This document shows positions 5,429 to 39,662 of a DNA stretch of 64,000 bases, piece after piece. Where the stretch lies: the NCBI GenBank assembly GCA_964555185.1, contig CAZKRD010000003.1, forward strand, positions 19,943 to 83,942. The letters run 5' to 3'. The position numbers were made by a program, and so were the translations under genes. This DNA comes from an uncultured Candidatus Saccharibacteria bacterium (GTDB lineage: Bacteria > Patescibacteriota > JAQUNI01). Position 1 is the stretch's first letter; each line of letters opens with the position of its first letter. Below the pieces are notes generated by a model. It was not told the DNA's origin. It worked only from the letters and a program-made list of their open reading frames with translations, and did not search any database.

Positions 5429-5683
5429 TTATTCCTTTAGGCCGTGCTCATAAAGGCACGCCTGATAATAAAAGCCGAACATATTTTTTACAAAAGTATT
5501 AACTTCAGAGTCTGCTAATTTAGGTAATTCGACTTCTGTTAGGCCTTTCATTGTGTCGTTAGCTTCAGTATAGCAAGCCTTTCTTATTTGATAAGGTCTA
5601 AATTGAAACCAATAAAACAGGAATCCTAAAACCAGAATGATAACAACGATGTGAACGATCTTCCAAGAGAATATTCTTTTCAT
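5429..5683 (-). CDS. small single-TM protein (same paralog family)
   Basis: FYWFQFRPYQIRKACY...CLYEHGLKE. Confidence 0.4.
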   Translation of the reverse strand: MKRIFSWKIVHIVVIILVLGFLFYWFQFRPYQIRKACYTEANDTMKGLTEVELPKLADSEVNTFVKNMFGFYYQACLYEHGLKE

Positions 5684-6505
5684 ATGTTTAGAAAATATAC
5701 CTTGATTTAAATCACAAAACCTCCCGCCAGATTATGGTCTTGCGACCAACAGACTCTTTCGAGACTGACTTTGTAAAGCAAGTTCCTCTGACGAGAGGCT
5801 CTCTATGCTTTACAAGGCTTTTGATGCCATATCAGTTGAAAACTGACTTAGGCGATTTGATTGTAGGGTCTAACTGGTTAACTCCTCTTACATCAATTAT
5901 TACTTAGCCTTTTATAATCTTATTATACAGCAGAGGCTTATTATCTGTAAATCTTAAAATGAACATTAGCGCCTCGCTCTTGAAGCCAAGGCCTGTTCAA
6001 AATTTCCTTGCGCTCTTACTACTTGAAAGCGACTTACCAATTCGTTCACTGTCCCCCAAAAACAAGTTTTTTACGATAAAGCTGGAAACGAGAATGATTC
6101 CGATGAGTGAAATGCACAGAAGAAACAAGATTATCAGGAATATCAAGAAGATGAGGCAGTATTATTGATTCTTGCATTTTCCGAAGTCTCGGTGTAAGGT
6201 GGTATTAGAGTCGCAAAAAACACAGTTCAAAAAAGGACAATCTGGTAACCCTAAAGGTCGGCCCAAAGGAACTAAGAATTTCTCTACTATTTTTGATGCA
6301 GCTGTCAAACAGATAGCGATAAAGGATAACATCTCTGTAGCACAGATTGCTTTCGTAGTAGTAAAGAAGCTCAAGAGAAAGCAAGAGAGATCATAAAATT
6401 TTTAAGAGAAACACAAAACGAGAACGGCAACAATTAAACAAAAAAGGCGATAAAGAATCAACCTGTAAAAACAGGTAAAAAACAGGTGGGTGGTAGAAAA
6501 GCAAA

Positions 6506-7822
6506 ATGTCTGTTAATAAAAAAGAGAACAATTATTATCCTGAAGTTCCTGATAAATATAAGAAAGAATATATTGACAGATTTGGAGATAATAAAAAGAA
6601 ACCAAAAATCCTAAAAATAGTAGGATTTTTTTGTAAGTTTATAATTTTTGCAATAATTGCAACTGTACTTATTTGGTTTTTTATTAATTCCGAGGATAAT
6701 ACTGACAATACTTTTAATGCAAGAGAATTTCCTCAACTGGAAGAACCAAAGACTATAACATTTGAATGGGGATATAAAGGATCAAAATATTCAATAACAG
6801 ACATTTTTTACAAGACGGTTTACGATTATTACAATTCAGACCTAGATAAAAATTGTTCCCAAAGAGAGATTGAAGAAGAGATTTGTTTTAAAAAGTTCCT
6901 AGAAGAAGCGGAAGAAGACAATACAATTTTAAGGATAGTTTCGGATATTAAAGAAATAGCATCTGAAAACGAATTCAGTAATGATGAGTTAGTAGAAGTA
7001 GTTGTAGCCTTTGTTCAATCGATTCCTTATGATGATGATAAGGCTAGATTAATTACATCACTCCCAGAGTCTTATTATGAAGACGACTATGATGTTAAAT
7101 CTAAAATAGAAAAAACCCTCCCAAGGTATCCATACGAAACCCTATACGATAATACGGGAATTTGTACAGATAAGAGCTTTTTAACAACATCCCTTATAAG
7201 CAAACTAGGCTATGGTGTCGCCTTGTTTGATTTTGATAAAGAAGAGCACATAGCTCTCGCAATAAAGTGTCCAATAGAATATTCTTCCTATGACTCTGGT
7301 TATTGTTTTACAGAAACGACTGAAACAGGATTTAAAATAGGTGAAATACCTCTAATAGATAACAAAACAAATAAGCCGAAAGCCAGAACTACATTGGGCT
7401 CGCATAAGCAAAACAATACAAGAACAGACCTTTTGCCCTTAGAAGGTGTTGAAATATATGAAATAACTGATGGAAATAGTTACCAAGGAGTAATTGAGAT
7501 AGCCAAAACAGAGCAGAAATTACAGAAACTAGAAAAAGAAATCGATAGTTTATATATAGTTATAAACTCGTTAACTAAAGAACTGGAGCAATTAGAAAAA
7601 AATATTACTTATTATGAGCAGCAGGTTGATGAAGCTTATGAAAGGCATCAAATAATCCAAGATTACGCATCGTATGAGGACTATGAACAGGTATATACTG
7701 AATATGAATATGAGGTAAAAAAGTATAAATCTAAAACAGCTTTGGCCAATGATCAAATTGCTAAATATAATAAATTAGTCGACGAATATAACGGTATTAT
7801 AGAATCCTTCTATCCCGAATAG
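6506..7822 (+). CDS. membrane-anchored transglutaminase-like protein with C-terminal coiled coil
   Basis: TM helix near N-terminus; GICTDKSFLTTSLISKLGYGVALF...EEHIALAI resembles the transglutaminase-like Cys/His core; C-terminal heptad-rich region. Confidence 0.4.
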   Translation: MSVNKKENNYYPEVPDKYKKEYIDRFGDNKKKPKILKIVGFFCKFIIFAIIATVLIWFFINSEDNTDNTFNAREFPQLEEPKTITFEWGYKGSKYSITDIFYKTVYDYYNSDLDKNCSQREIEEEICFKKFLEEAEEDNTILRIVSDIKEIASENEFSNDELVEVVVAFVQSIPYDDDKARLITSLPESYYEDDYDVKSKIEKTLPRYPYETLYDNTGICTDKSFLTTSLISKLGYGVALFDFDKEEHIALAIKCPIEYSSYDSGYCFTETTETGFKIGEIPLIDNKTNKPKARTTLGSHKQNNTRTDLLPLEGVEIYEITDGNSYQGVIEIAKTEQKLQKLEKEIDSLYIVINSLTKELEQLEKNITYYEQQVDEAYERHQIIQDYASYEDYEQVYTEYEYEVKKYKSKTALANDQIAKYNKLVDEYNGIIESFYPE

Positions 7823-7973: not shown

Positions 7974-9011
7974 CTACAAATCTTCCTTCATCAACTTAAA
8001 ATTCACCTGGTAGGTGTAAAGAGTAATGTTTTTCAATTCTTTGAGAGCATATTTTAATTTCTTGTCTACTTCCAAAACCACAATTACTCCTTTAACTATT
8101 TTGTCTTTGGCAAGGTTTTCTCGAACCCAAGCAATATAACGCAGTATCTGACCGACAACTGCATCGGAACTTCTGCCCTTTTTTAGCTCGATAACTAAAT
8201 ACTCCTTGCCATCTTTAAATCGAGCTAAAATATCTATTGGACCAACTGGTGTAGCATATTGTTGGCTTACCAAGTCCCCTTCCTCTTCGATCAACTCGTA
8301 TTTCTTACCGAAAGTTGTTTTACTCCAGTTAGCTATTAGAAAATCCTCAAGATGGCTCTCCATGCCAAAATTGACCAAATCTGCAACTCCATGTTCCTCG
8401 GCTTCCTTCTTTATTGCCTCTTCTTCGCTTTGAGAAACACCAAATGGGCTACTTCCGGAAATATTTCCTAAAACACCATCCAGTTGCCACAGGGTTATAT
8501 CGTGCTTATCTGCTAACTCCAACAACACTTGGTTGACCTTCAGATACTTATCAGCAAAGGTATCTCTTGGCAAAAACCTGGGAAATAGATTAAGTTTCTT
8601 TAAAGCCGACTCACTTTTGGTATTCCACACACCGTATTTGGCAGGATAAACGACTAGGAGAATAGGGGTAACAACCGCTCTACCCAATCCCTTGATATTA
8701 TAGCTGCTTCTTTTACTAAACGCCTTCTGTAATCTCTCTTTTATGGGGATATTCTCATCAAGAAGAAGATGCAGAAACTTCTTTAGTGCGTCCATATCAG
8801 AGGTAACTAGATTTCCTTGCCTATGTATTCCCTCCCAGTGAAGGTTGTTTTTTAGGAGTAAAAACGATTTGAAATCTTCTTTTATAAGACCATCGAGGTT
8901 AGCCGGATTAAACAATTGCCCATATTCTCCAACCACCTTTTTCTCTGACGTTACCCACCATGGGTCTTTTGCCCTGTTTTTAACAACTTTCTGAATGATT
9001 TCTTGTTCCAT
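7974..9011 (-). CDS. NucS/DUF91-like PD-(D/E)xK nuclease domain protein
   Basis: C-terminal PIDILARFKDGKEYLVIELKKGRSSDAVVGQILRYIAWV matches the conserved DUF91/NucS nuclease core. Confidence 0.5.
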   Translation of the reverse strand: MEQEIIQKVVKNRAKDPWWVTSEKKVVGEYGQLFNPANLDGLIKEDFKSFLLLKNNLHWEGIHRQGNLVTSDMDALKKFLHLLLDENIPIKERLQKAFSKRSSYNIKGLGRAVVTPILLVVYPAKYGVWNTKSESALKKLNLFPRFLPRDTFADKYLKVNQVLLELADKHDITLWQLDGVLGNISGSSPFGVSQSEEEAIKKEAEEHGVADLVNFGMESHLEDFLIANWSKTTFGKKYELIEEEGDLVSQQYATPVGPIDILARFKDGKEYLVIELKKGRSSDAVVGQILRYIAWVRENLAKDKIVKGVIVVLEVDKKLKYALKELKNITLYTYQVNFKLMKEDL

Positions 9012-9451: not shown

Positions 9452-10912
9452 TCAATTTTTGAGTATAGTCAGGTCAATATCAATCTGCTTTCCAGCGACC
9501 AAATCGCCAGCAATAGATTCCAGTTTTTGCTTGATTCGTTTGGTTTTCTCGTGAGTCAAAACAACTTCCCGATAAACTTTTGCGATTTGGCCTCTCAGAC
9601 CAGCTGGAAAATTAGGGAATGGTGTATTCAAAAATTGATTTGTCTTGATTTCTTTCATCTTTGACCCTATCGCAAGCCCAGCACAATAAAGTCGCATATA
9701 GTTGCAGTTCATAAAACAAGACATAAATAGTAAATCAGTATCAGGATAACCGGAGACCCTATAAATCCCTTGATTGTGTTGGGCTTTACCATACAGAGCT
9801 ATGTCAAAGAACATTGCGACACCAACATATTCTCCTCGGCCGCCACGCGAAGTTCGATTGACGAGCAACATCGCATTTTTGTTTAGATTGTTCTTTTCGC
9901 AAGTGATACGCTCCTCGTTTCTAAACGCGCCGAAGTCAGTAATATTTGCCGGCGTAACCCAAAAATATTTTAGTTCCTGACTTGTCCCGACCATGCGTTT
10001 TTTAGGCGTGTTCCCACTCTTGATATTTTTTTGATCAATTAGAAAAAATCCTGCTTTGTAATTCCGAACTAAAAAATCAATCTGCTAAAATTCTTTGCTA
10101 TATGTCCTAGTATCTAAACGAATCTCTTTCCCGATTTTGTTGGTAGTTGGATATTCGTACTGAAATTTCTTTGATTTTTGATTTGAGAGTTCCTTTTCAA
10201 TCAACTCATTGATAGTGGCGGATTTGTCTCTGACAAACCTTTCTTGTTTTATGACCGCCGTAACAAGTTTTTCAATATATTTAATTACTTCCTCCTGATT
10301 TTTTTGGTTCGGAAATGGAATTTTACAATCCAAAAAAAGTGTTTTTGCGTGCTTGATCGTGGTGCCTCGTGAGACAAGGAGTAAGAGTTGAATTTTAAAA
10401 AAAACACTTTTCAGCAATCCAAACACATATAGTTTTTGTTTTGTAAGGGGCAACCTGTATATGCCGCCTGAAATCATATGTTGTGGATAATCTTTATCCA
10501 AAATGATAACCTCGCCGACATTCGAATCTTTTGAAATCAAAATATCACCTTTTTTTAATTCATAATTTTTGAAACTCGAGGGTAGAATAGGAACCACACT
10601 TTCGGGCGAGAATGCAGGCAAAAAATAATCCGGCTGTAACCCCTTTGTTCGAATAAACTGAAATGGAGAATTCGATATATAACTCTGCGATCCGACCTCA
10701 ACTCCTTTATCAGTGGATTTGAGCGGACGATCAAGGAGATCGCGCAAATCCACACTATTTCTATTCTCAATTCTTAATCCTTTATATTGAGAAGCGGAAA
10801 GAGAATAGTGCCTGGAAGCTACTTCATTGGAGCGTATTTCAGTTGGTACTTTAATATAGTTCATTTGTCCAAAAAAACATCTTGTAGAGTTTTCTCTTGA
10901 CCTAAACACCAA
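9452..10912 (-). pseudogene. HsdS-like two-TRD specificity subunit interrupted by a single in-frame TAG (10085..10087)
   Basis: ORFs 10085..10912 (TRD1: GDILISKDSNVGEV...IPFPNQKNQEEVIKYIEKL) and 9452..9994 (TRD2: NTPFPNFPAGLRGQIAKVYRE) are in the same frame; the 31 intervening codons are open and separated only by the TAG. Confidence 0.6.
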
Positions 10913-13008
10913 TCCTTGAATTCCTTGACTGTTTGGGTAAATTCTTCATCAAGCAAGGGTTTACCCTCCTCATCTATTTTAACCTCAAATTTATTACTAT
11001 CAATTTTATAGATCGGAACAAAATGTTTAACACGCTTGATGGTTTTTACTTTGTATCCGACTCGCTGAATATCTTTCACAAAAATGTTGTAGCCATTCTC
11101 ATTGAGTTTCTTCAATTCTTTCTCAGATGGCTTGTAGGCAACGATGACCGTTGTATTGACTCCCGTATCGGCAAATACATTTGCAGGAAGATCGAATAAA
11201 GCAACGACTCTCATTTTTGACATAATCCATTTCCTTGCCTTCTCCCATCTATCAATTGATGCTATCGAATTTGAAAGTATAATACCGACTCGGCCGTTTT
11301 CTTTCAAGATACGGTAAGCATTTTCAAAAAACACAAGGCCGAGATCAATCCAATTTCCATTTCTTCCAACGTGCCAAAGCTCATAGAGTTCAATAATCTC
11401 TTTATCTTTTTGAGTTTTTGGTTCAAATTTCCTATCTTCTCCAAACGGCGGATTAGTTAGGACGATATCAAATTTTTTGAGTTCAGTATAGTCGTCCCAC
11501 GCATCCCAATTTCCGGCCTTGTGTTTTGCTGGAATGAGATTTACTAATTTCCCGTCCTTGTCGAATTTGTGAGTGATGGAACCATAGCCCGGCTGGAATT
11601 CTATCTTGGCGTTTCCGTCTCCGTTCAGAAGCATATTTAACTGTGCTAACATGACCATTTGCACGTCGTTATCAATTCCATAAATGTTTTTATCGTCCAT
11701 TTTTCTGTCGGACTTGACATAAGAAATTGACAAGAAATCTCCGCTGCCAACAGTCGGATCGGCTATCGTGTCCAACGCTTTCGGGTGAACTATATCAACA
11801 AGAAAATCAATCAATGGAATTGGTGTCAAAAATTGTCCCTTCTCGGATTTGGTAAAAGCGTTCGCAAAACGATAGAAAATGAGTTGATATAGATCAGTTG
11901 TACTCGATCTGGTAAAGCTGTAATCCTGCAAGTTATGGACTATTGAACCCACGACGGCAACATGTCCCTCGTTTTTCCAGTCAATAATTGAATTGCTCAA
12001 AATCACTTTATATGTACTTACCGCTTGGGCGCACAAATCCCGCATGCGTTTAATAAATGTTTGTATACTTTGGTCGTTGAGCGTCTTGAAATCGCGTTCA
12101 TTTTGTTCGATATAAAATTTGAGACGATGAATATCCCCGTATTCATCGTCTTGAATATAGTATTTCAACAACTCGTTCTTTTTTTCGTCGAAAATTTTGA
12201 GCGCGATAAGTTGAACCAAAATTTCATATCCGCGCTGGTTCAACATGCTTACCTTGTCGAGCGTTCGCAAAATATCGGAAATCGCCTGATTGATTTGAGT
12301 ACTAAAGACTCCGGTGATAACATCAAGATCATTTACGGTTCGTGCAGACCTGTCAATTTCTATATCAATAATGCGCTTTTTGATTTGATCAAAGGACGGA
12401 ATTTTTCGGAATTCATCGGGTAGGTGGAGAGACAATTCTCTTGTTGAACTGTTTTCTCCTTTTAGGTTGTACGATTCATCAAGGCGAATAAACTTGCCAT
12501 GCTTTTTTTGGAATAAAAATAGCCGTTCGGTGTCATAGAGAACGCCAAGACAAAAGTCGCTCTCCGATTCTTTAATGGCTGGTTTAAGTTGTTGATTATA
12601 GACCGTTTCAATATCCTTGCCATCTTCTTTCTTGAATTCAATGACGGCAATGAGATGACTTCTCAACCAATCAAGGTCGGATTGATTCTTTTTTGTAATC
12701 CAATTTTTATATCTATCAAACCAATTCTTATCGTCGAAAATCGCGCCGTCAAATTTGATGGGTGCAGAATTCTTGTTGCCTTTCGGAAAATAAACCTCCG
12801 AGCCGATAAAATCTTTTTGATAAAGTCCTGAATATACCAATCCGTAGAAAAATTGCCATTTGTAATATTCTTCGTTGGGCGTATTTCTTGACCCCTTGAT
12901 TTTGACCTTCTTATTCAACTTAAGATTGACAGGAAGGAAGGCCATGAAGTCTTTTTTTGTCAAATAGAACTTATCAAATTTTTGTTTTGTTTCAAAAAAT
13001 GTCTTCAT
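10861..13008 (-). CDS. type IIB/IIG restriction-modification enzyme (PD-(D/E)xK endonuclease fused to N6-adenine methyltransferase), BcgI-A-like
   Basis: N-terminal FDGAIFDD...IAVIEFKKED (D...ExK); methylase motif I DPTVGSGDFL and motif IV NPPFG; 3' end overlaps the specificity gene. Confidence 0.8.
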   Translation of the reverse strand: MKTFFETKQKFDKFYLTKKDFMAFLPVNLKLNKKVKIKGSRNTPNEEYYKWQFFYGLVYSGLYQKDFIGSEVYFPKGNKNSAPIKFDGAIFDDKNWFDRYKNWITKKNQSDLDWLRSHLIAVIEFKKEDGKDIETVYNQQLKPAIKESESDFCLGVLYDTERLFLFQKKHGKFIRLDESYNLKGENSSTRELSLHLPDEFRKIPSFDQIKKRIIDIEIDRSARTVNDLDVITGVFSTQINQAISDILRTLDKVSMLNQRGYEILVQLIALKIFDEKKNELLKYYIQDDEYGDIHRLKFYIEQNERDFKTLNDQSIQTFIKRMRDLCAQAVSTYKVILSNSIIDWKNEGHVAVVGSIVHNLQDYSFTRSSTTDLYQLIFYRFANAFTKSEKGQFLTPIPLIDFLVDIVHPKALDTIADPTVGSGDFLSISYVKSDRKMDDKNIYGIDNDVQMVMLAQLNMLLNGDGNAKIEFQPGYGSITHKFDKDGKLVNLIPAKHKAGNWDAWDDYTELKKFDIVLTNPPFGEDRKFEPKTQKDKEIIELYELWHVGRNGNWIDLGLVFFENAYRILKENGRVGIILSNSIASIDRWEKARKWIMSKMRVVALFDLPANVFADTGVNTTVIVAYKPSEKELKKLNENGYNIFVKDIQRVGYKVKTIKRVKHFVPIYKIDSNKFEVKIDEEGKPLLDEEFTQTVKEFKDWCLGQEKTLQDVFLDK

Positions 13009-18868: not shown

Positions 18869-20479
18869 ATGAAGAAAGTCGCTATTTACACAAGAGTTTC
18901 TAGCGAAGAGCAAGTAAATGGTTATAGCCTAGGAGATCAACAAGAGAAGTTGCAGGATTATTGTAAATCCAATGGTTTTCTATTAGAAAAAAGACATATA
19001 TACCGAGAGGAAGGAATTAGTGGCGCAAAAAAGGAAAGGCCTGTTTTAAGCCTGTTATTACAGGCAGCTCAAAATAAGGAGTTTGCCTTAGTTTTAGTTT
19101 ATAAATTAGATCGGTTTTCAAGGAGCCTAAAGAATCTCCTTGAGCTAGTTGCTGATTTAGAGAGAAATGGAATTGGTTTTAAGTCAATTACAGAGACATT
19201 TGATACTTCAACTCCGATGGGCAAGTATATGCTTCAGAATTTAGGGTCCATAGCTGAACTAGAGAGAGAGATGATCAGAGAAAGGACTCTAATGGGACAA
19301 ATCAAGTATCTTAAAGAGGGCAACTGGAAGGGGGGCATTACTCCCTATGGATACGATTACAATAAAGAGACTCACAAACTTGAAATTAATAAAGAAGAGG
19401 CTAAGATTGTTCGGAAAATGTATAAATGGGTTGCAGAAGAAGGTTCAACTTCACATTCAGTCCAAAAGCGACTTAATGATTTAGGGATTTCTACTAAGTA
19501 TGGTAACTTAGGTAAAAAGAAGCAGGTTAATGGTGCGTGCTTTTGGAAGAAAAGGACCGTTGGCAGGATTTTAACTAACGAGATTTATTCGGGTACATTT
19601 ACTTATCGTAAATATAAATATTTGGGGAGGGTTAGAGGAGAAGATAATTTACGTCCCGAGGACGAGTGGATTAAGATTAAAACTCCTAGAATAGTTAGTA
19701 AAAAGATTTTTGATTTGGTCCAGAATCAAATAAATAAAAATAAAAAACACTCACCGAGAAATAGTAAGTATAAATATCTTTTTGCCCACATGATTAAGTG
19801 TGGTTACTGTGAAGGTAGGTATGGGAGTATGTATAGTGCTGAACGCAAAAGAGGTGTAGTTGGACGGAAGAGATATTTTTGTCATAACACCAGAGCGGAT
19901 AATAAACAGGAGAAATGTAAAGCCAAAAGCGTGGCAGAAAAAAGAATTAGTGAGCCCATCTGGAACAAGATAGCAGAGGCGTTGAGTAATCCAGCCATAG
20001 CTTTTGAGCAATTGGAAAAGATACAGAAGAAAGAGAACAACATTGAGGAGGTTCAAGAGAAACAGAGAGAATCAGATAAGCTGATCCTTAAGAACAAAGA
20101 AAAATCCAGACGATTACTGGATTTGTATTTGGGAGGTGGGGTAGATAAGGAGACTTACGAAGAGAAAGTGGGGGAGATAAATAAAGAGGCCGATAGCTTC
20201 AGGCGGGAAAAAGTAAGGTATAATAACCTTTTTATTTCCAAAGAAGAGAAGAAGGCGAGAACACAATCAATTCAGGAGATGTATGGGCGGTTCAAGGACA
20301 ATCTTAAGAAAATCACCTATTCTCAAAAGAGAGAAGTGCTTAAAATGTTGATAGATAAGGTAATTATTAAAGGCGCAAAGATTGATATTTACTGTAATAT
20401 TCCCTATAAATACTCGTTTGAGGGACAGTCAACTCTCCTTCCGTGTCTTTGCCTTCGGGGTCGGGCAGAAATTCATTGA
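18869..20479 (+). CDS. large serine recombinase (integrase)
   Basis: N-terminal AIYTRVSSEEQ catalytic serine motif, recombinase domain, Cys-rich zinc ribbon (CGYCEG...C...C), coiled-coil C-terminus. The last ~15 codons read antisense through the LTD gene. Confidence 0.9.
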   Translation: MKKVAIYTRVSSEEQVNGYSLGDQQEKLQDYCKSNGFLLEKRHIYREEGISGAKKERPVLSLLLQAAQNKEFALVLVYKLDRFSRSLKNLLELVADLERNGIGFKSITETFDTSTPMGKYMLQNLGSIAELEREMIRERTLMGQIKYLKEGNWKGGITPYGYDYNKETHKLEINKEEAKIVRKMYKWVAEEGSTSHSVQKRLNDLGISTKYGNLGKKKQVNGACFWKKRTVGRILTNEIYSGTFTYRKYKYLGRVRGEDNLRPEDEWIKIKTPRIVSKKIFDLVQNQINKNKKHSPRNSKYKYLFAHMIKCGYCEGRYGSMYSAERKRGVVGRKRYFCHNTRADNKQEKCKAKSVAEKRISEPIWNKIAEALSNPAIAFEQLEKIQKKENNIEEVQEKQRESDKLILKNKEKSRRLLDLYLGGGVDKETYEEKVGEINKEADSFRREKVRYNNLFISKEEKKARTQSIQEMYGRFKDNLKKITYSQKREVLKMLIDKVIIKGAKIDIYCNIPYKYSFEGQSTLLPCLCLRGRAEIH

Positions 20480-24059: not shown

Positions 24060-24365
24060 TTCAAAGTGACCAAGGGTCATCCCGAGGATGAGCGAGGCGA
24101 GGATGAAGGGATCTCGCGGGTATTCCTTAAGGATCCTTGGGACCTTCGATTTATAATTAATGCTTCTTAATCTGTAGGCGGTTTTACGGGGCTATGCTTG
24201 TCAATGGATTTTTTAATGGCGAGTTACCCCTCGCTTAGCGAAGATTTTCGGATGATGATCGTAAATTGAATCTTCATTGGGCGAGGGGGCCAGACTTTCC
24301 TAATCCTTGGAGTTTAGCCTTGCTCTTAAGTAGACTTAGGAGCTTAGCGTCTACAGATTAAGAGG
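24060..24365. ncRNA. candidate structured RNA of unknown class (strand undetermined)
   Basis: ~420-bp ORF-free gap in a compact genome. Nested long-range complementarities: 24070-24078/24132-24140 (9 bp), 24168-24180/24348-24360 (13 bp incl. one G-U), 24227-24234/24281-24288 (8 bp), plus local hairpins. Confidence 0.3.
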
Positions 24366-24425
24366 CATTTATTGTTTTAAAATCTGGGTGGTAATCATCA
24401 AAAACAGAAGGAGGGATGATGTATC

Positions 24426-24848
24426 GTGAAGAAGAAAATGTTCGCTTTTTTGTACTTTTTGCCACTCTTTGTGGTTATTCTCACCACAGTTATTAGATGG
24501 GGGAATCCGGAGAGCTTTAAGGGGGTTTTGGGGCTGCTTTCACCTCTCCTTAACCTCGTGCTTTGCTACTTGCTGCTAAGTTGGAAGATTTTCCGCAAGA
24601 TTTTCTTGCATGAGAGGTTTGTTGTGGGACAAACTTCCCATGCGAAGGCTTATAACAGGATCAAGGACAAGGAGATTCACGTTCATTTGCAAGTGGGTAG
24701 GAAAGTGGTGATTGATCAGAAGGTGTGCGTTAGAGCAACGGTCCCTTCTATAGATAAGCCGTGCATTTTGGTAGCCGTGGTTAATGAAGATGGAGAATCA
24801 ACCAGTCTTCCTTCTGCTGCAACCATTACTATCCTGGGCCCCTGCTAA
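24426..24848 (+). CDS. hypothetical membrane-anchored protein
   Basis: 140 aa, two N-terminal hydrophobic helices; followed by a terminator. Confidence 0.4.
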   Translation: MKKKMFAFLYFLPLFVVILTTVIRWGNPESFKGVLGLLSPLLNLVLCYLLLSWKIFRKIFLHERFVVGQTSHAKAYNRIKDKEIHVHLQVGRKVVIDQKVCVRATVPSIDKPCILVAVVNEDGESTSLPSAATITILGPC

Positions 24849-24884
24849 AGCGGTAGAAATATAAGACCGCTTTTTTATTTTTGG
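24848..24884 (+). terminator. rho-independent terminator
   Basis: aagcggt-N12-accgctt then TTTTTTATTTTT. Confidence 0.5.
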
Positions 24885-25122
24885 AACTTAAATCCCTTGA
24901 TTCCAAACTCCGCATTATTCAGAAAACATTGTCTTTCTTTGCTTTTTGGATTATAATCTACTAATATATTCAGTTAATTTCGTTCTTTCTACTTTTCGCG
25001 GTTGGCATTTCAATGTGGAGGGAGGTTTTTAAAATGTCAAATTTGGAGCTACACTATGATTCGGGTGTTTCGGTAGTTTAATGTTTTCTCGTATGTTCTG
25101 TCAAAGAAAAGGAAGGAGAGGG

Positions 25123-25875
25123 ATGATGGTTAATGAAAAGGCAATAGCACTAGCCCTGAAACAGGGCGAGAGCTTGGCGGCAGCAGATCAGGTTCTGATT
25201 AATCCAAGGCCTGGAGATTTAGTTTCAATGACCACAGCGGCAATAGCAGCAATCCGGAAGCACGCCTGCACACCAGCCCAGGAGGGAGAGGCGCTTATTC
25301 TTTTGGGTCGTAATTTCGTCGGGAGAGAGGCAGTAATCGTAGGATATAAGCCCGAAGAGAGAGATGACGCCTTTAAGCAGGTTCTCGCCGCGCTGGATAG
25401 TTTAGACTTAGAAATCCAGAAAAACGTAGTGGAATCCCTTCTTGCTGATATGCAGTCAGTGAATGGTGGAGACAGTCTGCCTGGTCTTTGGGCAGAGAGG
25501 ATTCGCGAGAAATTAAATCAGGAAAAACCAGCCGGTTCTTTCTTGATCAAACTTGGAGAGCAAATACATCGCTGCGTTTATACGAAGATGGTTGAAAGAG
25601 AGATGGGCAAATTCGGGAACGATTTTGCCCGGGGCCTGGGGTGGATGAGATCATTTTACTGCCAAGTTTCCACAAACCCAGTATTGGCCTGGAAGGCATA
25701 TCTTGAAGATCTAGGTTTAAGGGAAAAGCTGAAAAGCAAAATTGCGGAGCACAGTGATTGGCTTGCGGATCCTGAAGCTTACAAGTTTGAGATCGCAATG
25801 CAGGCAACACTCTTGGCGCTCTGGCCTAATCTCACCATTTTCCGCCCATTAGCCTGTGTTCACCGATCTTACTGA
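25123..25875 (+). CDS. hypothetical protein (upstream half of overlapping pair; higher GC)
   Basis: ORF from track trimmed to MMVNEK; contains ...YCQVSTNPVLAWKAY weakly resembling the transaldolase TTNPSL motif. Confidence 0.35.
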   Translation: MMVNEKAIALALKQGESLAAADQVLINPRPGDLVSMTTAAIAAIRKHACTPAQEGEALILLGRNFVGREAVIVGYKPEERDDAFKQVLAALDSLDLEIQKNVVESLLADMQSVNGGDSLPGLWAERIREKLNQEKPAGSFLIKLGEQIHRCVYTKMVEREMGKFGNDFARGLGWMRSFYCQVSTNPVLAWKAYLEDLGLREKLKSKIAEHSDWLADPEAYKFEIAMQATLLALWPNLTIFRPLACVHRSY

Positions 25876-27085
25876 CTATCAGGTGAGTTTTCAGTTAAGT
25901 CCTCTGATCGCTGGTTCGGTTGAAAAGAGCATTGCGGATGCTGAACGCGCTCGTCAACAGGCCAGAGAATTCTTGATAAAGTATGATCAATTACTGGGTT
26001 TTGGCGATGAAGCCGGGAAAATAGCACCGAATTTGGTTCTGAAAGTTGCTGCCTGCCATCCGGCTGCTCTGGAAATCACCCGTAAGTTGAATAGCCGGGG
26101 ACAGGGCACGAATAACACATTGGTCTATGCAGTAGCCCAAGAGGTTATGCTCTGGATAGAAGCTTTAAAGGGCAAGGCTGCGGCATTAAATACAGGACAT
26201 CCGGTTGTCCGAACCTATATGACCAATATGCCGGGACGGCTGGTTAGTCATCTTCGGGAGCAAGCAGCCGTTAGTATATTTAACTTAGTTGCTAAGTATC
26301 GTTCTGTTAGTCAGGCCATGGATCTTCTGGAGAAGCTTGCAAACGAACTGGGTGTAGATAGGGCAGTTTGGGAAGCTCTCGCACCTAGCGATATTGAGAC
26401 AAAAGTAAGGGTCATTTGCGCCTATAAGTATCTCAAGACCCTTGATCCTGCTGACCAGCCCACTATAATGGAAACGGCAATATTAGCTGGGTATTCGCAA
26501 GAAAGTCTGGAAACTTTAGAGAAGGCCCTGAAAATGGCTGGAACCTTTGTCGCCCAACGGGTTTGGAAAATATTCTTGTCTCCAGGAAATAAGGAGAAAT
26601 GGATAGCCTTTATAGAAAGGGAATACAACCTGAGCCGCGAAAAGGCAGAATGGGTTGTGGACTCGATGGGATATCTCCCTGCGTCCAAACGGACTCCAGA
26701 TGATACTTTGCTCGCACTTGGTGATAATATGATCCACACCGAGTTCCCTAACCATGGTCGGAGCGTTGCAGAGTATGCAGAATTGGCAGGCTTTCAGCTT
26801 GAGGATTATCGGGATTCGATTGCCTCCGAGCCTGAATATCCCTGGCTTACTTTACTGCAAGCGCTTCCTGATTTTTGTCGGGCATATGGTCTCACCCAAG
26901 AGATAAAAGACTTTCTGGTGGCAAGAGTTGGAATCACAGATGTGATGCACTGGGGAACAGAAGGCTTAAAGCCGGAAGAATGGTCAACTTTCGGGTCTGT
27001 GCAGAAAACCGCCTGCGAATTTCAATTTGCCTTTGGCGAGTTTGTGAAGATGTGTCTGGAGATTGCCAGAGAGGCTGCGGGGTAG
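25856..27085 (+). CDS. hypothetical protein with transaldolase/Fsa-like active-site segment
   Basis: LVLKVAACHPAALEITRKLNSRGQGTNNTLVYAVAQ aligns by eye with FsaA [35 protein letters not shown] and TalB ILIKLAST...NCNLTLLFSFAQA. Overlaps the previous ORF by 20 nt in the +1 frame. Confidence 0.4.
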   Translation: MFTDLTDYQVSFQLSPLIAGSVEKSIADAERARQQAREFLIKYDQLLGFGDEAGKIAPNLVLKVAACHPAALEITRKLNSRGQGTNNTLVYAVAQEVMLWIEALKGKAAALNTGHPVVRTYMTNMPGRLVSHLREQAAVSIFNLVAKYRSVSQAMDLLEKLANELGVDRAVWEALAPSDIETKVRVICAYKYLKTLDPADQPTIMETAILAGYSQESLETLEKALKMAGTFVAQRVWKIFLSPGNKEKWIAFIEREYNLSREKAEWVVDSMGYLPASKRTPDDTLLALGDNMIHTEFPNHGRSVAEYAELAGFQLEDYRDSIASEPEYPWLTLLQALPDFCRAYGLTQEIKDFLVARVGITDVMHWGTEGLKPEEWSTFGSVQKTACEFQFAFGEFVKMCLEIAREAAG

Positions 27086-27114
27086 GTTTGTATGGTGATC
27101 TTTGGGAAAGGGAC

Positions 27115-27255
27115 GGGCGACCATAAAGATCGCCCCTACAATCCCTACAGCGGTGTGATGATTTTCCACCGCTTTTTATTTTTAAAGGATTGGGCGACCA
27201 CATGGAGTCGCCCCTACGGGGATGCAACCGGGCGACTATAAAGGTCGCCCCTAGA
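27115..27255. repeat. three REP-like hairpin repeats GGGCGAC-N7-8-GTCGCCCCTA
   Basis: 27115-27139, 27192-27217, 27230-27255, between convergent genes. Confidence 0.75.
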
Positions 27256-29359: not shown

Positions 29360-31933
29360 TTAATCCTCTTCTTCCTCTTTCGGTTCTGGCTCTGGCACTG
29401 GTTCTGGAGAGATTTTGGCTCTCAGGCTTTGAATTTTTTGTTTCACTTGTTCATTATCAGGATTTAATTCTTGCACTTTGCTCATTTGCTCCAAGGCCAG
29501 ATCAAGTTCTCCTAAAGTTTCATAAGCCAAAGCCAGACTGTAGCGGGCGTTAGCGTGATTTGGATTCAAACCAATTACGAGAGTAAAAGCATTGACCGCG
29601 CGGACAAAATCAGGATTTTCTTCAAGATTATTCTGGTTTTCCGACATCGCTTTGTTGTAAGAGAGGCGGCCGACTTCATAGATTACTTCTTGATTTTTTG
29701 GGGCCAGCTGATAACAGATTCCAATTCGCTCTAAAGCTTCTTGGAGTTGATTCTTTTTTTCAAAAATTAGGGCGAGGTAATAATGGGCGGCGAGGTAATC
29801 CGCCTTTAACTCCACTGCCTTTTGAAAGGCTTCTTCGGCTTTGATGTAGCCTTCTTCCTGTTCTGCTCCTTCGGAAAGCCCTGCTTTCAGCATATAGGCG
29901 CGGCCCAGTTTGGCCGCAAAGACGGGGTTGGTTGGCTCGAGCTCCTGCGCTTTTTCATAAGATTTGATTACCCAGTCGTTAGCATCCTGGGAGTAGAGCG
30001 TGGTGTTTTCATAGACCTGGCCCCGCGCTTCCCAGAAGTTGACATTCTGAGGCACAAGATCGGTAGCCTGCTTTGACTGATTGATGCCGTTGGCGATTAA
30101 GAGTTGAATCAGATTGATGTCAGCGGCATCACCTTTGGTTGCTTCTATGTTTGCCTGGGTTAAATAATTTTGAGCTAAGGCTAAATAGTAGATCGGACGG
30201 TGTTGATTTAGTTCCAGGGCGCGGTTAAAGAGACGAGTTGCTTCATTATAGTTTTGTTCGGAAGCTTTTTCTAAAGCCTTTTGGTGATAAGCGTCTGCCA
30301 AGTAGATCCGTCCTAAGTAGCTGAATAGGATGGCGACTGCAGAGAGGGCAGCAACAAAGGTAAAGGAGAGAAGAAGGGCATACTTAGGAGAGGCCTTGAA
30401 AGACAAGGTGAATTTTCTAAATTCATACGGTCGATAGATGCTGATGATAGCCATAATCAAACCCATCGAGAGCCAAAAAAAGGTTTGAAGCGTGGTATTA
30501 GTGGAATTTAAAAATCCGGCAAAGAATAGAGAGGCCCAGCCAGCGATCAAGCCGAGGGCAATGAAGTCAATGCGGGATTCCCGCTTTACTCCTTGTTCTT
30601 CCTCTTCTTCTTCGCCTTCTTTGATTTCTCGGATAGGGATAGATCTGGATTTTAAATCTAACTCATTCTCATCTTTTTTTGGTGTCTCTAATTCTTCTTC
30701 CTCTTTGAATTTTTCAAAGAAAGAGCTCGTTTTTCCAGGACCTCTCTGATTATTAGCGAGCGGCCCTTCTTTAAAAACAGATGGTCTGTTTCGTCCCTTT
30801 TTGATTAAAATTAAACTGGATGAGCCGATGAAGACCAAGACGATTACGGTCAGGGCGAGTACGCCCAATACCCCGGTCGTGGCCAAGGATTCAAAATAGA
30901 CGTTGTTTGCTTTTTCAAACCTTACATTCCAAAGGATGTTGCGGTTAAAACGGGCTGGACGATATTGAGAAAAGTCATAACTAAAGGTTTCGGGCCCAGA
31001 GCCAAAAAGGAAATTAAAGAAGCCGGACCAGACTGTTTTTCGGCTGATCTCCCAAGACAGTTTATTGCTTAAAGATACCTCGCTAGGCAAGTTTCCTTTT
31101 ATCACCGAGGGTATGCCCAAGGTGGCGCCAAAGATCGCGACCAGCAAGAGGATTCCGGGGACAACCAGCCATTTCTTGGCTAAATAGTCTTTACTCTTGG
31201 CAATGCCAAAACCCAAAATTGCAAACATAGCTAGAATTAGTACATACCACCCCACTTTAAAATTGATTATATTCATCAGGACCCAGTTTGCAATAATCAG
31301 AATCAGAACTAATATCCTGAAGATTAACTTCATTCTGGTCTTTAAGAGGAAGGCGACAGCCAGACAGAGGGTAAAGGTCAAAAAGACTGTTAAGCTCATC
31401 AAGCTGCCCACGGGATTGAAGGAATTGATTTTGGTCAGCTCAAAAGGGAGAATGAAAACGTTGAAGATCTGAAGAAGAGTGTAGACAACCAGGAGGGCTG
31501 TTGAAGCAAGGAGAGCTATCCCGAGCCTAATGATTTTTTTGGCGGTGTTTAAGTTGCTGACAACGAGAAAATAGAGGAGAGCATAGAAAACAACCGTGAT
31601 TAATCCTGTTGAACCTTGGCCGTAAGCGCCCAGGATGCTGCTTACTTTATCTTGAGAAAATATTGTGGCGAGGGCATAGATAATCAAGAAAGCAATAATC
31701 GGGATATCAAGCGGCGTGCGCTTGATAATCATTTTTTTGCCTTGAATCCCCTTGGCAAACCAAGCGAGGTAGCCGATCAGGACAGTAGCGAAGAGTAAGA
31801 GTTGCTTTGAGAATTCCAGAACGCGAGGCGTGAAGGGGAGAAAAAAGAGCGGAAGCAAAAAGACTAAAAGAATCAACGACCAAAAAATAACCTGGTCGCA
31901 AGTTAGAGACACTTTCTCTTTGATACTAATCAT
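29360..31933 (-). CDS. polytopic membrane protein (O-antigen ligase/Wzy-like) with C-terminal TPR repeats
   Basis: >10 predicted TM helices in the first ~480 aa, E-rich linker, then TPR-like helical repeats. Confidence 0.45.
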   Translation of the reverse strand: MISIKEKVSLTCDQVIFWSLILLVFLLPLFFLPFTPRVLEFSKQLLLFATVLIGYLAWFAKGIQGKKMIIKRTPLDIPIIAFLIIYALATIFSQDKVSSILGAYGQGSTGLITVVFYALLYFLVVSNLNTAKKIIRLGIALLASTALLVVYTLLQIFNVFILPFELTKINSFNPVGSLMSLTVFLTFTLCLAVAFLLKTRMKLIFRILVLILIIANWVLMNIINFKVGWYVLILAMFAILGFGIAKSKDYLAKKWLVVPGILLLVAIFGATLGIPSVIKGNLPSEVSLSNKLSWEISRKTVWSGFFNFLFGSGPETFSYDFSQYRPARFNRNILWNVRFEKANNVYFESLATTGVLGVLALTVIVLVFIGSSSLILIKKGRNRPSVFKEGPLANNQRGPGKTSSFFEKFKEEEELETPKKDENELDLKSRSIPIREIKEGEEEEEEQGVKRESRIDFIALGLIAGWASLFFAGFLNSTNTTLQTFFWLSMGLIMAIISIYRPYEFRKFTLSFKASPKYALLLSFTFVAALSAVAILFSYLGRIYLADAYHQKALEKASEQNYNEATRLFNRALELNQHRPIYYLALAQNYLTQANIEATKGDAADINLIQLLIANGINQSKQATDLVPQNVNFWEARGQVYENTTLYSQDANDWVIKSYEKAQELEPTNPVFAAKLGRAYMLKAGLSEGAEQEEGYIKAEEAFQKAVELKADYLAAHYYLALIFEKKNQLQEALERIGICYQLAPKNQEVIYEVGRLSYNKAMSENQNNLEENPDFVRAVNAFTLVIGLNPNHANARYSLALAYETLGELDLALEQMSKVQELNPDNEQVKQKIQSLRAKISPEPVPEPEPKEEEED

Positions 31934-37464: not shown

Positions 37465-38361
37465 TCACACATAAAGTTTAATGGGCAACTCGTTGATCAT
37501 CCTCCTAATGGTTTTAAGATCGGCCGTGGCATGTTCTGCCCCAGGAAGCGGCTCAAGATCAATAGGCACTTGAATCTTCAGCATCCGTAACCTCAAGAGC
37601 AGCTCTTTGAAATCAATTTCTTCCATTGAATCTATTCCTTCTGTTTGAGCTAGAGGAATAGTTTCTGCTTCGAGGCCCACTCGCCGCGCGTTCTTAAGGT
37701 GAATTGCTTTTACGATAGGCCAGTGAACCTTAAGCTCTTTGTCAAGAAAAGAAGCCAGTGACATCCTTTCTGTTTTTAAATGGTTTAAGGTGTGGATACT
37801 GTAAAGATAATTGCCAAGATCCCACAGGCAGCCGAGGCGATCATCTTTTAGTATTTCACAGAGGCGAGCTACATCCGACAGGGTCTCACATCCAGTCGCG
37901 GCCTCGTTCTCCACAGCTAACACAAAATTAGGAGGGAGTATCTCTAAGGCTCGTTTGAGGTGGTCCACCAATCCACTTTTGGCCATATACGGGATGTCGA
38001 GCTGGCGCCTGCCCGCGAAAGCGCGGATCACATTTGTGCCGAAGATTATGGCGCACTCAATGAGTTTCGGGAGTTTCTTGAAATGTTCTTCTACTTGAGT
38101 TGGATCATCAAGTTCGCATTTCAGAAAACAAGAAGCAAGGAGGCTTACTTTTTTTTCGGCATCATTGAGTATACTTGCTTCCTTTTTTACTCGTTCGAGT
38201 GGAATGTCCCATATATCCTCGCCATCAATTTTTCTGATTTCTACTTGCTTGATTTCCTGTCTTTGAGCCCAGGGCAGAAATGTTGCTGCATTCGGAGCAA
38301 CTTTGTCCATTATAATCCCAACAGAAAACTGATCAGGCATCTGCTTTCCTCCTCCTTCCAA
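37465..38361 (-). CDS. sugar phosphate isomerase/epimerase (xylose-isomerase-like TIM barrel) family protein
   Basis: IRAFAG, AVENE, WDLGN motifs. Confidence 0.55.
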   Translation of the reverse strand: MEGGGKQMPDQFSVGIIMDKVAPNAATFLPWAQRQEIKQVEIRKIDGEDIWDIPLERVKKEASILNDAEKKVSLLASCFLKCELDDPTQVEEHFKKLPKLIECAIIFGTNVIRAFAGRRQLDIPYMAKSGLVDHLKRALEILPPNFVLAVENEAATGCETLSDVARLCEILKDDRLGCLWDLGNYLYSIHTLNHLKTERMSLASFLDKELKVHWPIVKAIHLKNARRVGLEAETIPLAQTEGIDSMEEIDFKELLLRLRMLKIQVPIDLEPLPGAEHATADLKTIRRMINELPIKLYV

Positions 38362-38420
38362 AAAAGTTTTCTGTGACGCCTAGGCTGTGCCTGAAGCGCC
38401 ACAGAAGTTACCGACAGCCT

Positions 38421-39662
38421 TTAGAGAACTTCGGATCCCTTGCCCTGCTGGATCAGCGGGATATAGGTTTCCAGTTCTTCCAGCACACTGGCGTCGGTCA
38501 GGTCGAGTGCCTTTCCCTTCTCGTGGGACATATATCCAGCCATGATCAACCTGACGATCTCACGTCCATACCTGAAATTAAGCAGAGCGTCTTTGCCTTG
38601 CTCAAAGGCGGCAATGGCGTCTCTCCATTCAGCCGCGTATCCATACAGATCAGGCTCATTGGGTTGCATGGTAAGAGCACCGCGCGTCGCCTGTGCCTTT
38701 TCTAGGGCGAGTTCGCCGTCTACAATGGATTCAGCCGCGATGTCGCTGATAAATATGCCAGCAGGCGATTCCAGGGAGTTGATCGTGTATGAATACCCGG
38801 GGCCAAAAGCTTCCATCAGAAGTCTCAACCCGGGAGCGTCATACATCCATGAATTCGTAGCTTGAGCTACGCTTCGGACACCAGTGTCAGGGTCTTTGAA
38901 TTCGGCTGTAACCAGCGCGTAGTCTTCTGCTGGAGTTGTGGCATAATCCACGCCACGGTTGCGAAGTTGGCTGACCCACGGCTCTTTGCCCCACTTGAGC
39001 AGTGTCATGGTACCATTGATGGAAACGGGTTCCAGATGATCAGGTGGCTTGCCAGTAGGGGTTAACATATACATGCCAACGGCAATACTGTGACAGCCCA
39101 TATCGCACCAGACACCACCACCCTGTTTTTTTGGGTCCCAGAACCACGCTTCGTGCGGCCCGCCGTGTTCTTCTGCTGATCGGGTTAGGTGCACAGCGCC
39201 TATAGATTGCTCCACTGACTGAAGCTGGAGTCGGGCGTTTTGAACTGCGGGCATGTGGATCTGATTCTCAAAATACGCTGTGGAGACACCCACTGATTTG
39301 ACCAATTCAGCCAGACCCACCATCCTATTAGCTTCAGCCATGTTTCGAGCCAGCGGTTTTTCACAGATGATCCCCTTGATTTTTGCACCTCTCTCCTCGA
39401 TTGCGCGGATAATTTTACGCAGGACTTCAAGGCGAACAAAGTTAGGGATAAACATACAGACTACATCCACCTTTTGGCAGAGCTCCTCCACGCTTCTATA
39501 AACCTTAGTATCACCCAACCCGGCTTCGCGTGCTCTTTGAGCGAGTTCTTCTGCCCCATCCAGGGCATAAACACCAGCTAATTCCACGCCGCGAACCGAT
39601 TCCAAAGCCTTCCGGTGGAACTCCGCAACAAAACCAGCTCCGATCATTCCAATCTGTAACAT
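38421..39662 (-). CDS. Gfo/Idh/MocA family NAD(P)-dependent oxidoreductase
   Basis: N-terminal Rossmann motif MLQIGMIGAGFVAEFH, EKP motif (ICEKPLA), ~410 aa. Confidence 0.8.
   Translation of the reverse strand: MLQIGMIGAGFVAEFHRKALESVRGVELAGVYALDGAEELAQRAREAGLGDTKVYRSVEELCQKVDVVCMFIPNFVRLEVLRKIIRAIEERGAKIKGIICEKPLARNMAEANRMVGLAELVKSVGVSTAYFENQIHMPAVQNARLQLQSVEQSIGAVHLTRSAEEHGGPHEAWFWDPKKQGGGVWCDMGCHSIAVGMYMLTPTGKPPDHLEPVSINGTMTLLKWGKEPWVSQLRNRGVDYATTPAEDYALVTAEFKDPDTGVRSVAQATNSWMYDAPGLRLLMEAFGPGYSYTINSLESPAGIFISDIAAESIVDGELALEKAQATRGALTMQPNEPDLYGYAAEWRDAIAAFEQGKDALLNFRYGREIVRLIMAGYMSHEKGKALDLTDASVLEELETYIPLIQQGKGSEVL

Follow-up and report, generated by a model that had tools for sequence, protein, structure and literature searches.

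What do two overlapping open reading frames (ORFs) of transaldolase-like appearance encode in an uncultured Candidatus Saccharibacteria bacterium, and does the break between them reflect the biology of the organism? The ORFs lie in a 64,000-nucleotide stretch of contig CAZKRD010000003.1 (assembly GCA_964555185.1, positions 19,943 to 83,942), the whole of which was analysed and is called the window here; an initial annotation had taken them for an aldolase-like gene split by a frameshift. We find that positions 25123–27085 make up one gene, referred to below as the transaldolase-like (Tal-like) gene, which encodes, but for one inserted base, a long member (653 aa) of the transaldolase/fructose-6-phosphate aldolase (FSA) superfamily. 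We propose, with a probability of roughly 0.7, that it is a young pseudogene in which a very recent inactivating mutation has struck a dispensable gene. The parts of the locus are as follows.

25081–25875, + strand: ORF A, 264 aa from the first ATG, with a likely start at 25123
25123–25875, + strand: ORF A read from ATG 25123, 244 native residues plus six out-of-frame residues (CVHRSY), then TGA
25856–27085, + strand: ORF B, 409 aa, GTG start, +1 frame, the C-terminal 409 residues of the product
25111–25128, + strand: probable true start, ribosome-binding site GGAAGGAGAGGG (also given as GGAGAGGG) followed by ATG 25123 / ATG 25126
24929–24957, + strand: promoter-like site TTGTCT-17-TATAAT upstream of the Tal-like gene

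An overlap of 20 nt, with ORF B in the +1 frame, had been reported and is borne out by the coordinates. Frame B is closed by a TAG at 25850–25852 and open only from 25853, and frame A ends with the TGA at 25873–25875; these two stops bound both frames, and any shift between them must therefore fall within 25853–25872. ORF A encodes an N-terminal helical domain, strands β1 (KFGND) and β2 (QVSTNPV) and helix α2, including D167 (codon 25621–25623) and N185 (codon 25675–25677). ORF B encodes β3 (VSFQL), β4, β5 (GTNNT), β6 (TYMTNMPGR), a helical insertion, β7 (LPASKR), β8 (TEFPNH) and a C-terminal helical extension, including Q257 (codon 25892–25894) and the Schiff-base lysine K307 (codon 26042–26044).

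When the two frames were joined after Ala244, the resulting 653-aa query matched 149 proteins (E ≤ 0.001). Those listed (120 of the 149) are single chains of 615–708 aa with 91–100% query coverage, apart from five exceptions, namely the window's own ORF B (P0002, 409 aa) and four partial proteins of 502–553 aa. Homologues occurring as two separate conserved genes, which the initial annotation had named as an outcome that would speak against its interpretation, were not seen. The closest among the matches listed is P0001, an intact protein of 654 aa and 73% identity, encoded on JGI contig L004 beside the same convergent VanW-like neighbour. Aligned gene to gene at the DNA level, the window has exactly one surplus nucleotide relative to the L004 gene, which lies at the junction. 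Apart from it the alignment contains just two gaps, of 3 and 6 nt, both in frame and close to the 5′ end.

25853–25855, + strand: single extra nucleotide, GCC-T-GTG in the window versus GCG-GTG in L004

The six residues past the junction read VFTDLT in frame B, VFHNLT in P0001 and CVHRSY in frame A; frame B resembles P0001 and is thus the ancestral reading, which places the insertion at about 25853–25855. According to a family alignment of 16 sequences, this site belongs to a six-residue variable loop that separates the invariant FRPLA motif from DY, just before β3. No second natural split at the same point was found among the homologues. The sole other 5′-truncated match, P0137 (411 aa, beginning at β3), was considered as a split gene and rejected, since its 1.5-kb contig ends 48 nt away, which makes it a truncation.

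Homologue N-termini line up at ATG 25123/25126 and not at 25081, and independent gene callers picked the same start. The length first given for the product, about 665 aa, is indeed unusual, but the exact figure has to be corrected to 653 aa, counted from the start at 25123 that the homologue N-termini indicate. The promoter-like site sits within a block (24925–24996) that is 86% identical to the intact relative L004, and both it and the ribosome-binding site are conserved in comparison with that contig. The leader of the Tal-like gene contains a strong GGAGAGG (25111–25122), kept in L004 and L096, unlike most ORFs of the window, which have A/T-rich leaders without a Shine-Dalgarno sequence.

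The protein belongs to the transaldolase/FSA superfamily. A hidden Markov model search of ORF B gave the transaldolase signal that had been seen in it by eye, with Pfam TAL_FSA at 31.0 bits against a gathering threshold of 27 (residues 6–99, profile positions 75–148). ORF A alone gave no Pfam TAL_FSA match. The fused product scores 35.3 bits against TAL_FSA (PF00923; residues 181–342, cut-off 27) and intact homologues score 32–38 bits. The TTNPS-like segment suspected in ORF A proved genuine, as the match of the fused product reaches back over QVSTNPV and hhalign places STNPV on the TTNPS of E. coli TalB (sequence taken from NC_000913.3); this alignment passes straight through the frameshift site. 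An AlphaFold2 model of the fused sequence, built with the family alignment, has a predicted local distance difference test score of 90.6, a predicted template-modelling (TM) score of 0.90 and the eight strands of a transaldolase-type (β/α)8 barrel, arranged as follows.

Residues 1–160: N-terminal helical domain
Residues 163–166: β1 (KFGND)
Residues 179–184: β2 (CQVSTN)
Residues 253–257: β3 (QVSFQ)
Residues 304–309: β4 (LVLKVA)
Residues 329–334: β5 (GTNNTL)
Residues 364–368: β6 (TYMTN)
Residues 370–513: helical insertion of 145 aa between β6 and β7
Residues 515–520: β7 (YLPASK)
Residues 536–541: β8 (IHTEFP)
Residues 545–652: C-terminal helical extension of about 110 aa

Foldseek searches of this model against the PDB returned transaldolases or transaldolase-family aldolases for every significant match (top 36, E ≤ 1e-4), and transaldolases/FSA made up 48 of the top 50. 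The best matches were the Neisseria gonorrhoeae enzyme 7bbx (E = 2.9e-8) and the Corynebacterium glutamicum enzyme 3r5e, with TM scores normalised to the target of 0.59–0.73 among significant matches (0.73 for E. coli TalB, 1onr). Identity to the structural matches is 10–14%, and a family profile search against the PDB gave E = 0.007 at best (to 3r5e), so the relationship is remote at the sequence level. The structure prediction that had been proposed as a check thus gave a transaldolase-fold barrel, all of whose significant PDB matches are of the transaldolase family. The surplus of about 300 residues at the C-terminus that had been expected does exist, but its placement was partly wrong, much of it being the β6–β7 insertion inside the barrel, with β7 and β8 at residues 515–541. 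Taken together, single-chain homologues that span both ORFs, an L004 junction that differs by one nucleotide and a fused product that models as a barrel uphold the initial interpretation of one gene split by a frameshift.

The same protein was called on five contigs, for three of which the DNA was compared: Logan SRR8482196, Logan SRR8482191 and the 706,972-bp scaffold ENA ERZ23486238. Each of these loci matches the window at 100% identity, junction included, over 9.2, 2.9 and 9.2 kb respectively. The three assemblies represent two pipelines and at least two runs or read sets, compared at the assembly level. A one-off assembly error is therefore unlikely, given three identical assemblies and a site (GCCTGTG) without a homopolymer. 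The DNA does carry the lesion, which arose very recently.

The fate of the gene in relatives, which were identified by a RuvB search, bears directly on whether it is needed. An intact gene for 647–654 aa is present in L004, L096, L097 and L098 (order VanW > < Tal-like ... RuvB > PGI), of which the last three have RuvB proteins 76–78% identical to that of the window and the first a Tal-like protein 73% identical. Since four syntenic relatives keep it, the Tal-like gene is ancestral and vertically inherited in the clade. In the nearest relatives, L094 and L095 (from two JGI samples; RuvB 97% identical, about 92% nucleotide identity), the alignment to the window runs to 27169 and resumes at 24378, and the 2.8 kb between have been swapped for about 49 nt.

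24379–27168, no strand: segment deleted in the relatives, replaced by about 49 nt at L094 5589–5637 / L095 3309–3357

This clean deletion removes the ORF at 24426–24848, the whole Tal-like gene, one hairpin downstream of it (hairpin 1 below) and part of a terminator, and ends exactly at the 5′ edge of a conserved RNA candidate described below. A further relative, L060, a GTDB species-representative metagenome-assembled genome labelled Candidatus Saccharibacteria, shares the VanW/RuvB/PGI synteny and carries a different frameshift near codon 90, its gene (5657–7686) being divided into ORFs 5657–5980 and 6001–7686 around GCTAAGAAGCATTAA. The frameshift in the window, the deletion in L094/L095 and the frameshift in L060 argue for up to three independent inactivations in one clade, and hence for the gene being dispensable there.

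As expected of a pseudogene, the frame is disrupted relative to intact orthologues and the gene is lost in close relatives. No additional lesion and no relaxed constraint were found in the Tal-like gene of the window. Only 2 of 138 otherwise invariant family positions are altered in the fused sequence (0–7 in intact members), and the ratio of nonsynonymous to synonymous substitution rates (dN/dS) against L004 is 0.21 (0.28 for half A and 0.16 for half B); together with the conserved promoter and ribosome-binding site, these values imply that the lesion is very young. The absence of extra decay means that the event is recent or tolerated. With one nucleotide inserted at about 25853–25855, in the loop before β3, translation from ATG 25123 would stop at the TGA at 25873, past β2, and would yield a 250-aa fragment without the catalytic lysine, and ORF B has neither a ribosome-binding site of its own nor β1–β2. 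We infer that the split product is inactive.

A number of observations weigh against loss of function. There is no second lesion or relaxation of constraint, and the sequence itself gives no proof of function loss. The insertion occupies a variable six-residue loop, and wherever within the 20 overlapping nucleotides a +1 shift took place, a protein of normal length with every invariant residue would result. ORF B begins with a GTG directly behind the insertion and the ORF A stop follows 17 nt downstream, an arrangement that could allow termination-reinitiation and assembly of two fragments. In addition, the three assemblies may sample one clonal population, their identity being shown at the assembly level, and L060 is a co-assembled genome whose frameshift could be either a co-assembly error or real decay. 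If the extra base were a sequencing or assembly artefact, absent from the DNA of an organism whose gene is intact, the perfect preservation of both gene halves and the intact promoter and ribosome-binding site would be accounted for, but we consider this very unlikely given three identical assemblies from two pipelines and at least two runs, a site that is not a homopolymer, and a sister strain whose loss of the gene shows it to be dispensable here.

It is also unlikely that the gene is split yet functional, with ORF B produced by reinitiation at GTG 25856 and the (βα)1–2 portion with the N-terminal domain assembling with (βα)3–8 into an active barrel. The break does fall in a surface loop between α2 and β3, the GTG start directly after the insertion and the 20-nt overlap would serve such a mechanism, no further decay is seen, and TIM-barrel fragment complementation is known from protein engineering. 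However, no ribosome-binding site precedes 25856, no homologue is naturally split there (P0137 is at a contig edge and L060 is broken elsewhere), and the sister strain does without the gene. A programmed +1 frameshift, or a shift at the UAC-UGA-C stop, that restores the full-length enzyme as in prfB is hardly credible: although a shift anywhere in 25853–25872 keeps the normal length and all invariant residues, and the ORF A stop is UGA followed by C, which is a weak termination context, the sequence read over 25846–25880 lacks both an upstream Shine-Dalgarno-like stimulator and, in the overlap, any P-site codon able to re-pair in +1, and the split is absent from L004, L096, L097, L098 and all 226 genome matches (described below), the break in L060 being unrelated. 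Thus of the three causes offered initially, pseudogenisation is the best supported, assembly error is unlikely given three identical assemblies, and programmed frameshifting is unlikely for want of a slippery site and of conservation. Two other candidates were rejected, namely an alternative genetic code, as TGA readthrough in frame A brings more stops and long standard-code ORFs fill the window, and transcriptional slippage, as there is no A/T run at the site. For a young pseudogene, the frameshift itself is ordinary gene decay; combined with the sister deletion and the independent break it shows clearly how a lineage with a small genome is in the course of losing a gene.

What is being lost depends on the chemistry of the intact protein, for which the correspondence with TalB given by hhalign is informative.

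TalB TTNPS 33–37: STNPV 183–187
TalB E96: Q257
TalB K132: K307
TalB N154 / T156: N330 / T332

K307 is invariant in the family and is also aligned to the equivalent lysine in 3r5e and 1wx0, and the Asn of STNPV and N330/T332 are likewise invariant. Asn185, Gln257 and Thr332 occupy the positions of TalB N35/E96/T156, equivalent to FSA N28/Q59/T109, so that the catalytic Glu of TalB (E96) is not present in this alignment and Gln257 stands in its place. D167, a candidate for the β1 Asp of these enzymes (TalB D17, FSA D6), is also invariant, at the end of the modelled β1 (KFGND) and outside the span of the alignments to known enzymes. The motif S-[FYL]-Q-L occurs in 72 of 76 full-length family ORFs (the other four being unmatched by the pattern) and TNMGGR in 70 of the 76, with TNIGGR and TNMPGR found once each. 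PMC13259622 describes FSA Q59, T109 and Y131 as organising the catalytic water and, citing Stellmacher et al., reports that swapping those residues between FSA and TalB turns aldolase into transaldolase activity and vice versa. The TNM(G/P)GR of β6 and the ASKR of β7 resemble SPFVGR and ASFR and are on the right strands in the model. The profile alignment of the β6–β8 half to TalB is not significant (E = 0.22), and we therefore only infer that Met369 occupies the Phe178/Tyr131 position and that R372, S521 and R523 occupy the phosphate-binding positions, which in TalB are R181, S226 and R228. The match of the family profile to FsaA is weak (E = 0.017, 48 columns). To judge from these residues, the intact protein, 635–680 aa long in relatives, probably has class I aldolase or transferase chemistry, in which a keto-sugar (phosphate) donor would be bound as a Schiff base by Lys307 of strand β4.

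The family of about 650 aa is rare and strongly conserved, with twice the normal length for a transaldolase fold and an FSA-like Glu-to-Gln change. We suggest only tentatively that its members are class I (lysine Schiff-base) enzymes of distinct function, with Gln and Met paired in the active site, three extra helical modules and an orphan role in carbohydrate metabolism other than that of the usual transaldolase or FSA, scattered over Latescibacterota, Gemmatimonadota, Acidobacteriota, Bathyarchaeia/Thermoprotei and a single CPR-like clade of small genomes; if so, the window would catch a member of this family at the moment of loss. That the intact family is an ordinary pentose-phosphate transaldolase (EC 2.2.1.2) with decorative extra domains also seems doubtful. 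Such a role would agree with the transaldolase fold, the conserved Lys, Asn and Thr, the label 'transaldolase' in some sources and the central-carbon genes nearby (PGI in the window, TIM in Bathyarchaeia, PEPCK in Gemmatimonadota), but every full-length member inspected has Gln, the FSA state, at the Glu96 equivalent, which is among the positions whose exchange interconverts the two activities according to PMC13259622 (citing Stellmacher et al.). Moreover, the Phe178/Tyr131 position appears to be Met, judging from the motif, similarity to solved transaldolases is marginal (E = 0.007) and there is no conserved gene partner. Metabolic reconstructions that count the family as a pentose-phosphate transaldolase may be wrong.

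Searches of genome and metagenome collections with the single fused protein returned no relatives, but an alignment-based scan of 185,579 species-representative genomes gave 226 matches, mostly in Latescibacterota, Gemmatimonadota and Terriglobia/Acidobacteriota, followed by Bathyarchaeia, Thermoprotei, Aerophobetes, Dehalococcoidia and Poribacteria. Of 1.84 billion cluster representatives, 52 matched at E ≤ 1e-30, and roughly a dozen of these are full length. Source labels for the family are 'hypothetical protein', 'transaldolase' and 'transaldolase family protein', and a literature search found nothing relevant describing the long transaldolase-like family. BLAST clustering of 902 neighbouring ORFs (15 identity groups) revealed no conserved operon partner. 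The most frequent Pfam neighbour was AP_endonuc_2 (5 of 140 neighbours in 19 loci), which is suggestive of sugar metabolism at most, its recurrence being a weak hint of a sugar pathway shared with the Tal-like gene. Genes of central-carbon or sugar metabolism recur loosely nearby: in Gemmatimonadota and Latescibacterota PEPCK, DapB and DHDPS, in Bathyarchaeia TIM and glyoxalase, and elsewhere inositol-1-phosphate synthase and KDPG aldolase. AP_endonuc_2 neighbours were noted in unrelated phyla (L096, L007, L010, L011), and the window itself has genes for an AP_endonuc_2 protein (xylose-isomerase-like TIM barrel) and a GFO_IDH_MocA oxidoreductase at 37465–39662, about 10 kb from the Tal-like gene.

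The initial annotation had also described the GC content of the gene as clearly higher than that of its neighbours and suggested a horizontal origin. The GC content is 0.48, compared to 0.485 for ruvB, 0.461 for VanW and 0.45 for PGI, and hence is not clearly above the neighbours; the window mean is 0.417 and the per-gene mean 0.429 (standard deviation 0.05, 38 ORFs), and the contrast seen earlier is due to spacers rich in AT and to the low GC content of the window's left third. A horizontal origin finds no support in this per-gene comparison, and at least five relatives have the gene in a syntenic position. An ancient transfer into the clade is plausible from the patchy phyletic distribution, for which GC content is no evidence.

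Between the convergent Tal-like and VanW genes lies a terminator, flanked by three hairpins.

27115–27135, no strand: hairpin 1, GGGCGACY-N5/6-RGTCGCCC
27192–27213, no strand: hairpin 2, GGGCGACY-N5/6-RGTCGCCC
27230–27250, no strand: hairpin 3, GGGCGACY-N5/6-RGTCGCCC
27149–27184, + strand: intrinsic-terminator-like hairpin AGCGGTG...CACCGCT followed by a T run, conserved in L004

Three hairpins do follow the gene directly, as first described, but they are not dispersed copies of a repetitive extragenic palindromic (REP) element, having been found locally only: their consensus occurs at 27112–27253 and nowhere else in the 64-kb window. The region folds with z = -3.55. L004 has none of these hairpins and L094 has one (5520–5590) that differs from those of the window. 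Their behaviour is that of small palindromic insertions that expand locally about a conserved terminator. The hairpins have the form GGGCGACC...GGTCGCCC, and the one of L094 holds a nested palindrome, CCTACCTGCTGGTAGG, in its loop.

Other features of the window and its relatives are listed here.

24151–24382, - strand: conserved structured RNA candidate between the ORF at 24426–24848 and the ruvB promoter
L097 5363–5632, L098 4080–4362 and L060 7845–8132: the RNA candidate in relatives, located with nhmmer
5734–5854, - strand: LOOT RNA (RF03000), full length, Rfam score 56.6 against a gathering threshold of 46.4 bits
27256–27380 and 29360–29420, - strand: proline/glutamate-rich tails of the VanW-like and TPR proteins

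The block containing the RNA candidate is 97% identical in L094/L095, where its flanks are about 92% identical, and about 80% identical in L096, where the ruvB DNA is only 71.5% identical. It was found with nhmmer in all six lineage members, always by the Tal-like locus and on the ruvB strand, and a metagenome pattern scan found no further copies. RNAalifold predicts a long rod in which 63 pairs form and the apical part varies in size (25–110 nt), with 95.2% of cells paired; 16 pairs have compensatory double changes, compared to 1–4 in slid controls and 0 of 500 shuffles. There was no match to Rfam even at E ≤ 1. The candidate may be 6S-like. It also holds a AGGAAAGUCUGG word recalling CR-I of RNase P, but its elements do not come in the order expected of RNase P.

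The low-GC part of the window (1–20479, genes 0.30–0.41) looks like a mobile or defence island. It includes the restriction-modification genes N6_Mtase/Eco57I (10861–13008) and Methylase_S (10085–10912) and a NucS_C-domain protein (7974–9011), and ends with a large serine recombinase (18869–20479); a serine recombinase in L094 adjoins the LTD gene. The gene content includes LTD, VanW, FemAB and a type IV pilus ATPase, and together with the 707-kb scaffold, the label of L060 and the RuvB affinities it makes a Patescibacteria/CPR bacterium the probable host. The VanW-like and adjacent TPR proteins end in low-complexity proline/glutamate-rich tails, ...PPKEEKKEEPKPPPPPPKPEPTPEPPEEEADEEEEE and ...PEPVPEPEPKEEEED.

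Compared to classical transaldolases (TalB 1onr; N. gonorrhoeae 7bbx/3clm; C. glutamicum 3r5e), the Tal-like protein has the same barrel (TM 0.66–0.73 normalised to the solved structure), the Schiff-base Lys on β4, the Asn of a TTNPS-like motif on β2, the N-x-T of β5 and a TAL_FSA score above threshold. It differs in its N-terminal 160-aa helical domain, its 145-aa β6–β7 insertion and its 110-aa C-terminal extension, which make it about twice as long (653 versus 316–360 aa), confirming that it is far longer than a canonical transaldolase, and in the family's Gln where classical enzymes have the catalytic Glu96. With E. coli FsaA it shares this Gln (FSA Q59) and equivalents of K85, N28 and T109, whose roles are those given in PMC13259622, although FSA is only 220 aa long and has the Tyr131 proton shuttle in A-P-Y-V-N-R, where the Tal-like family appears, from the motif, to have T-N-M-G/P-G-R.

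At the level of the break, the locus resembles prfB-type +1 frameshifting in having its downstream ORF in the +1 frame and an upstream ORF ending in UGA followed by C, but differs in having no CUU-type slippery codon, no Shine-Dalgarno stimulator and no conservation in orthologues. With the ordinary frameshift pseudogenes of reduced genomes it shares a single-base indel, intact orthologues and a deletion in a sister strain, and it differs from them in being free of secondary decay, so that the mutation must be either very young or tolerated.

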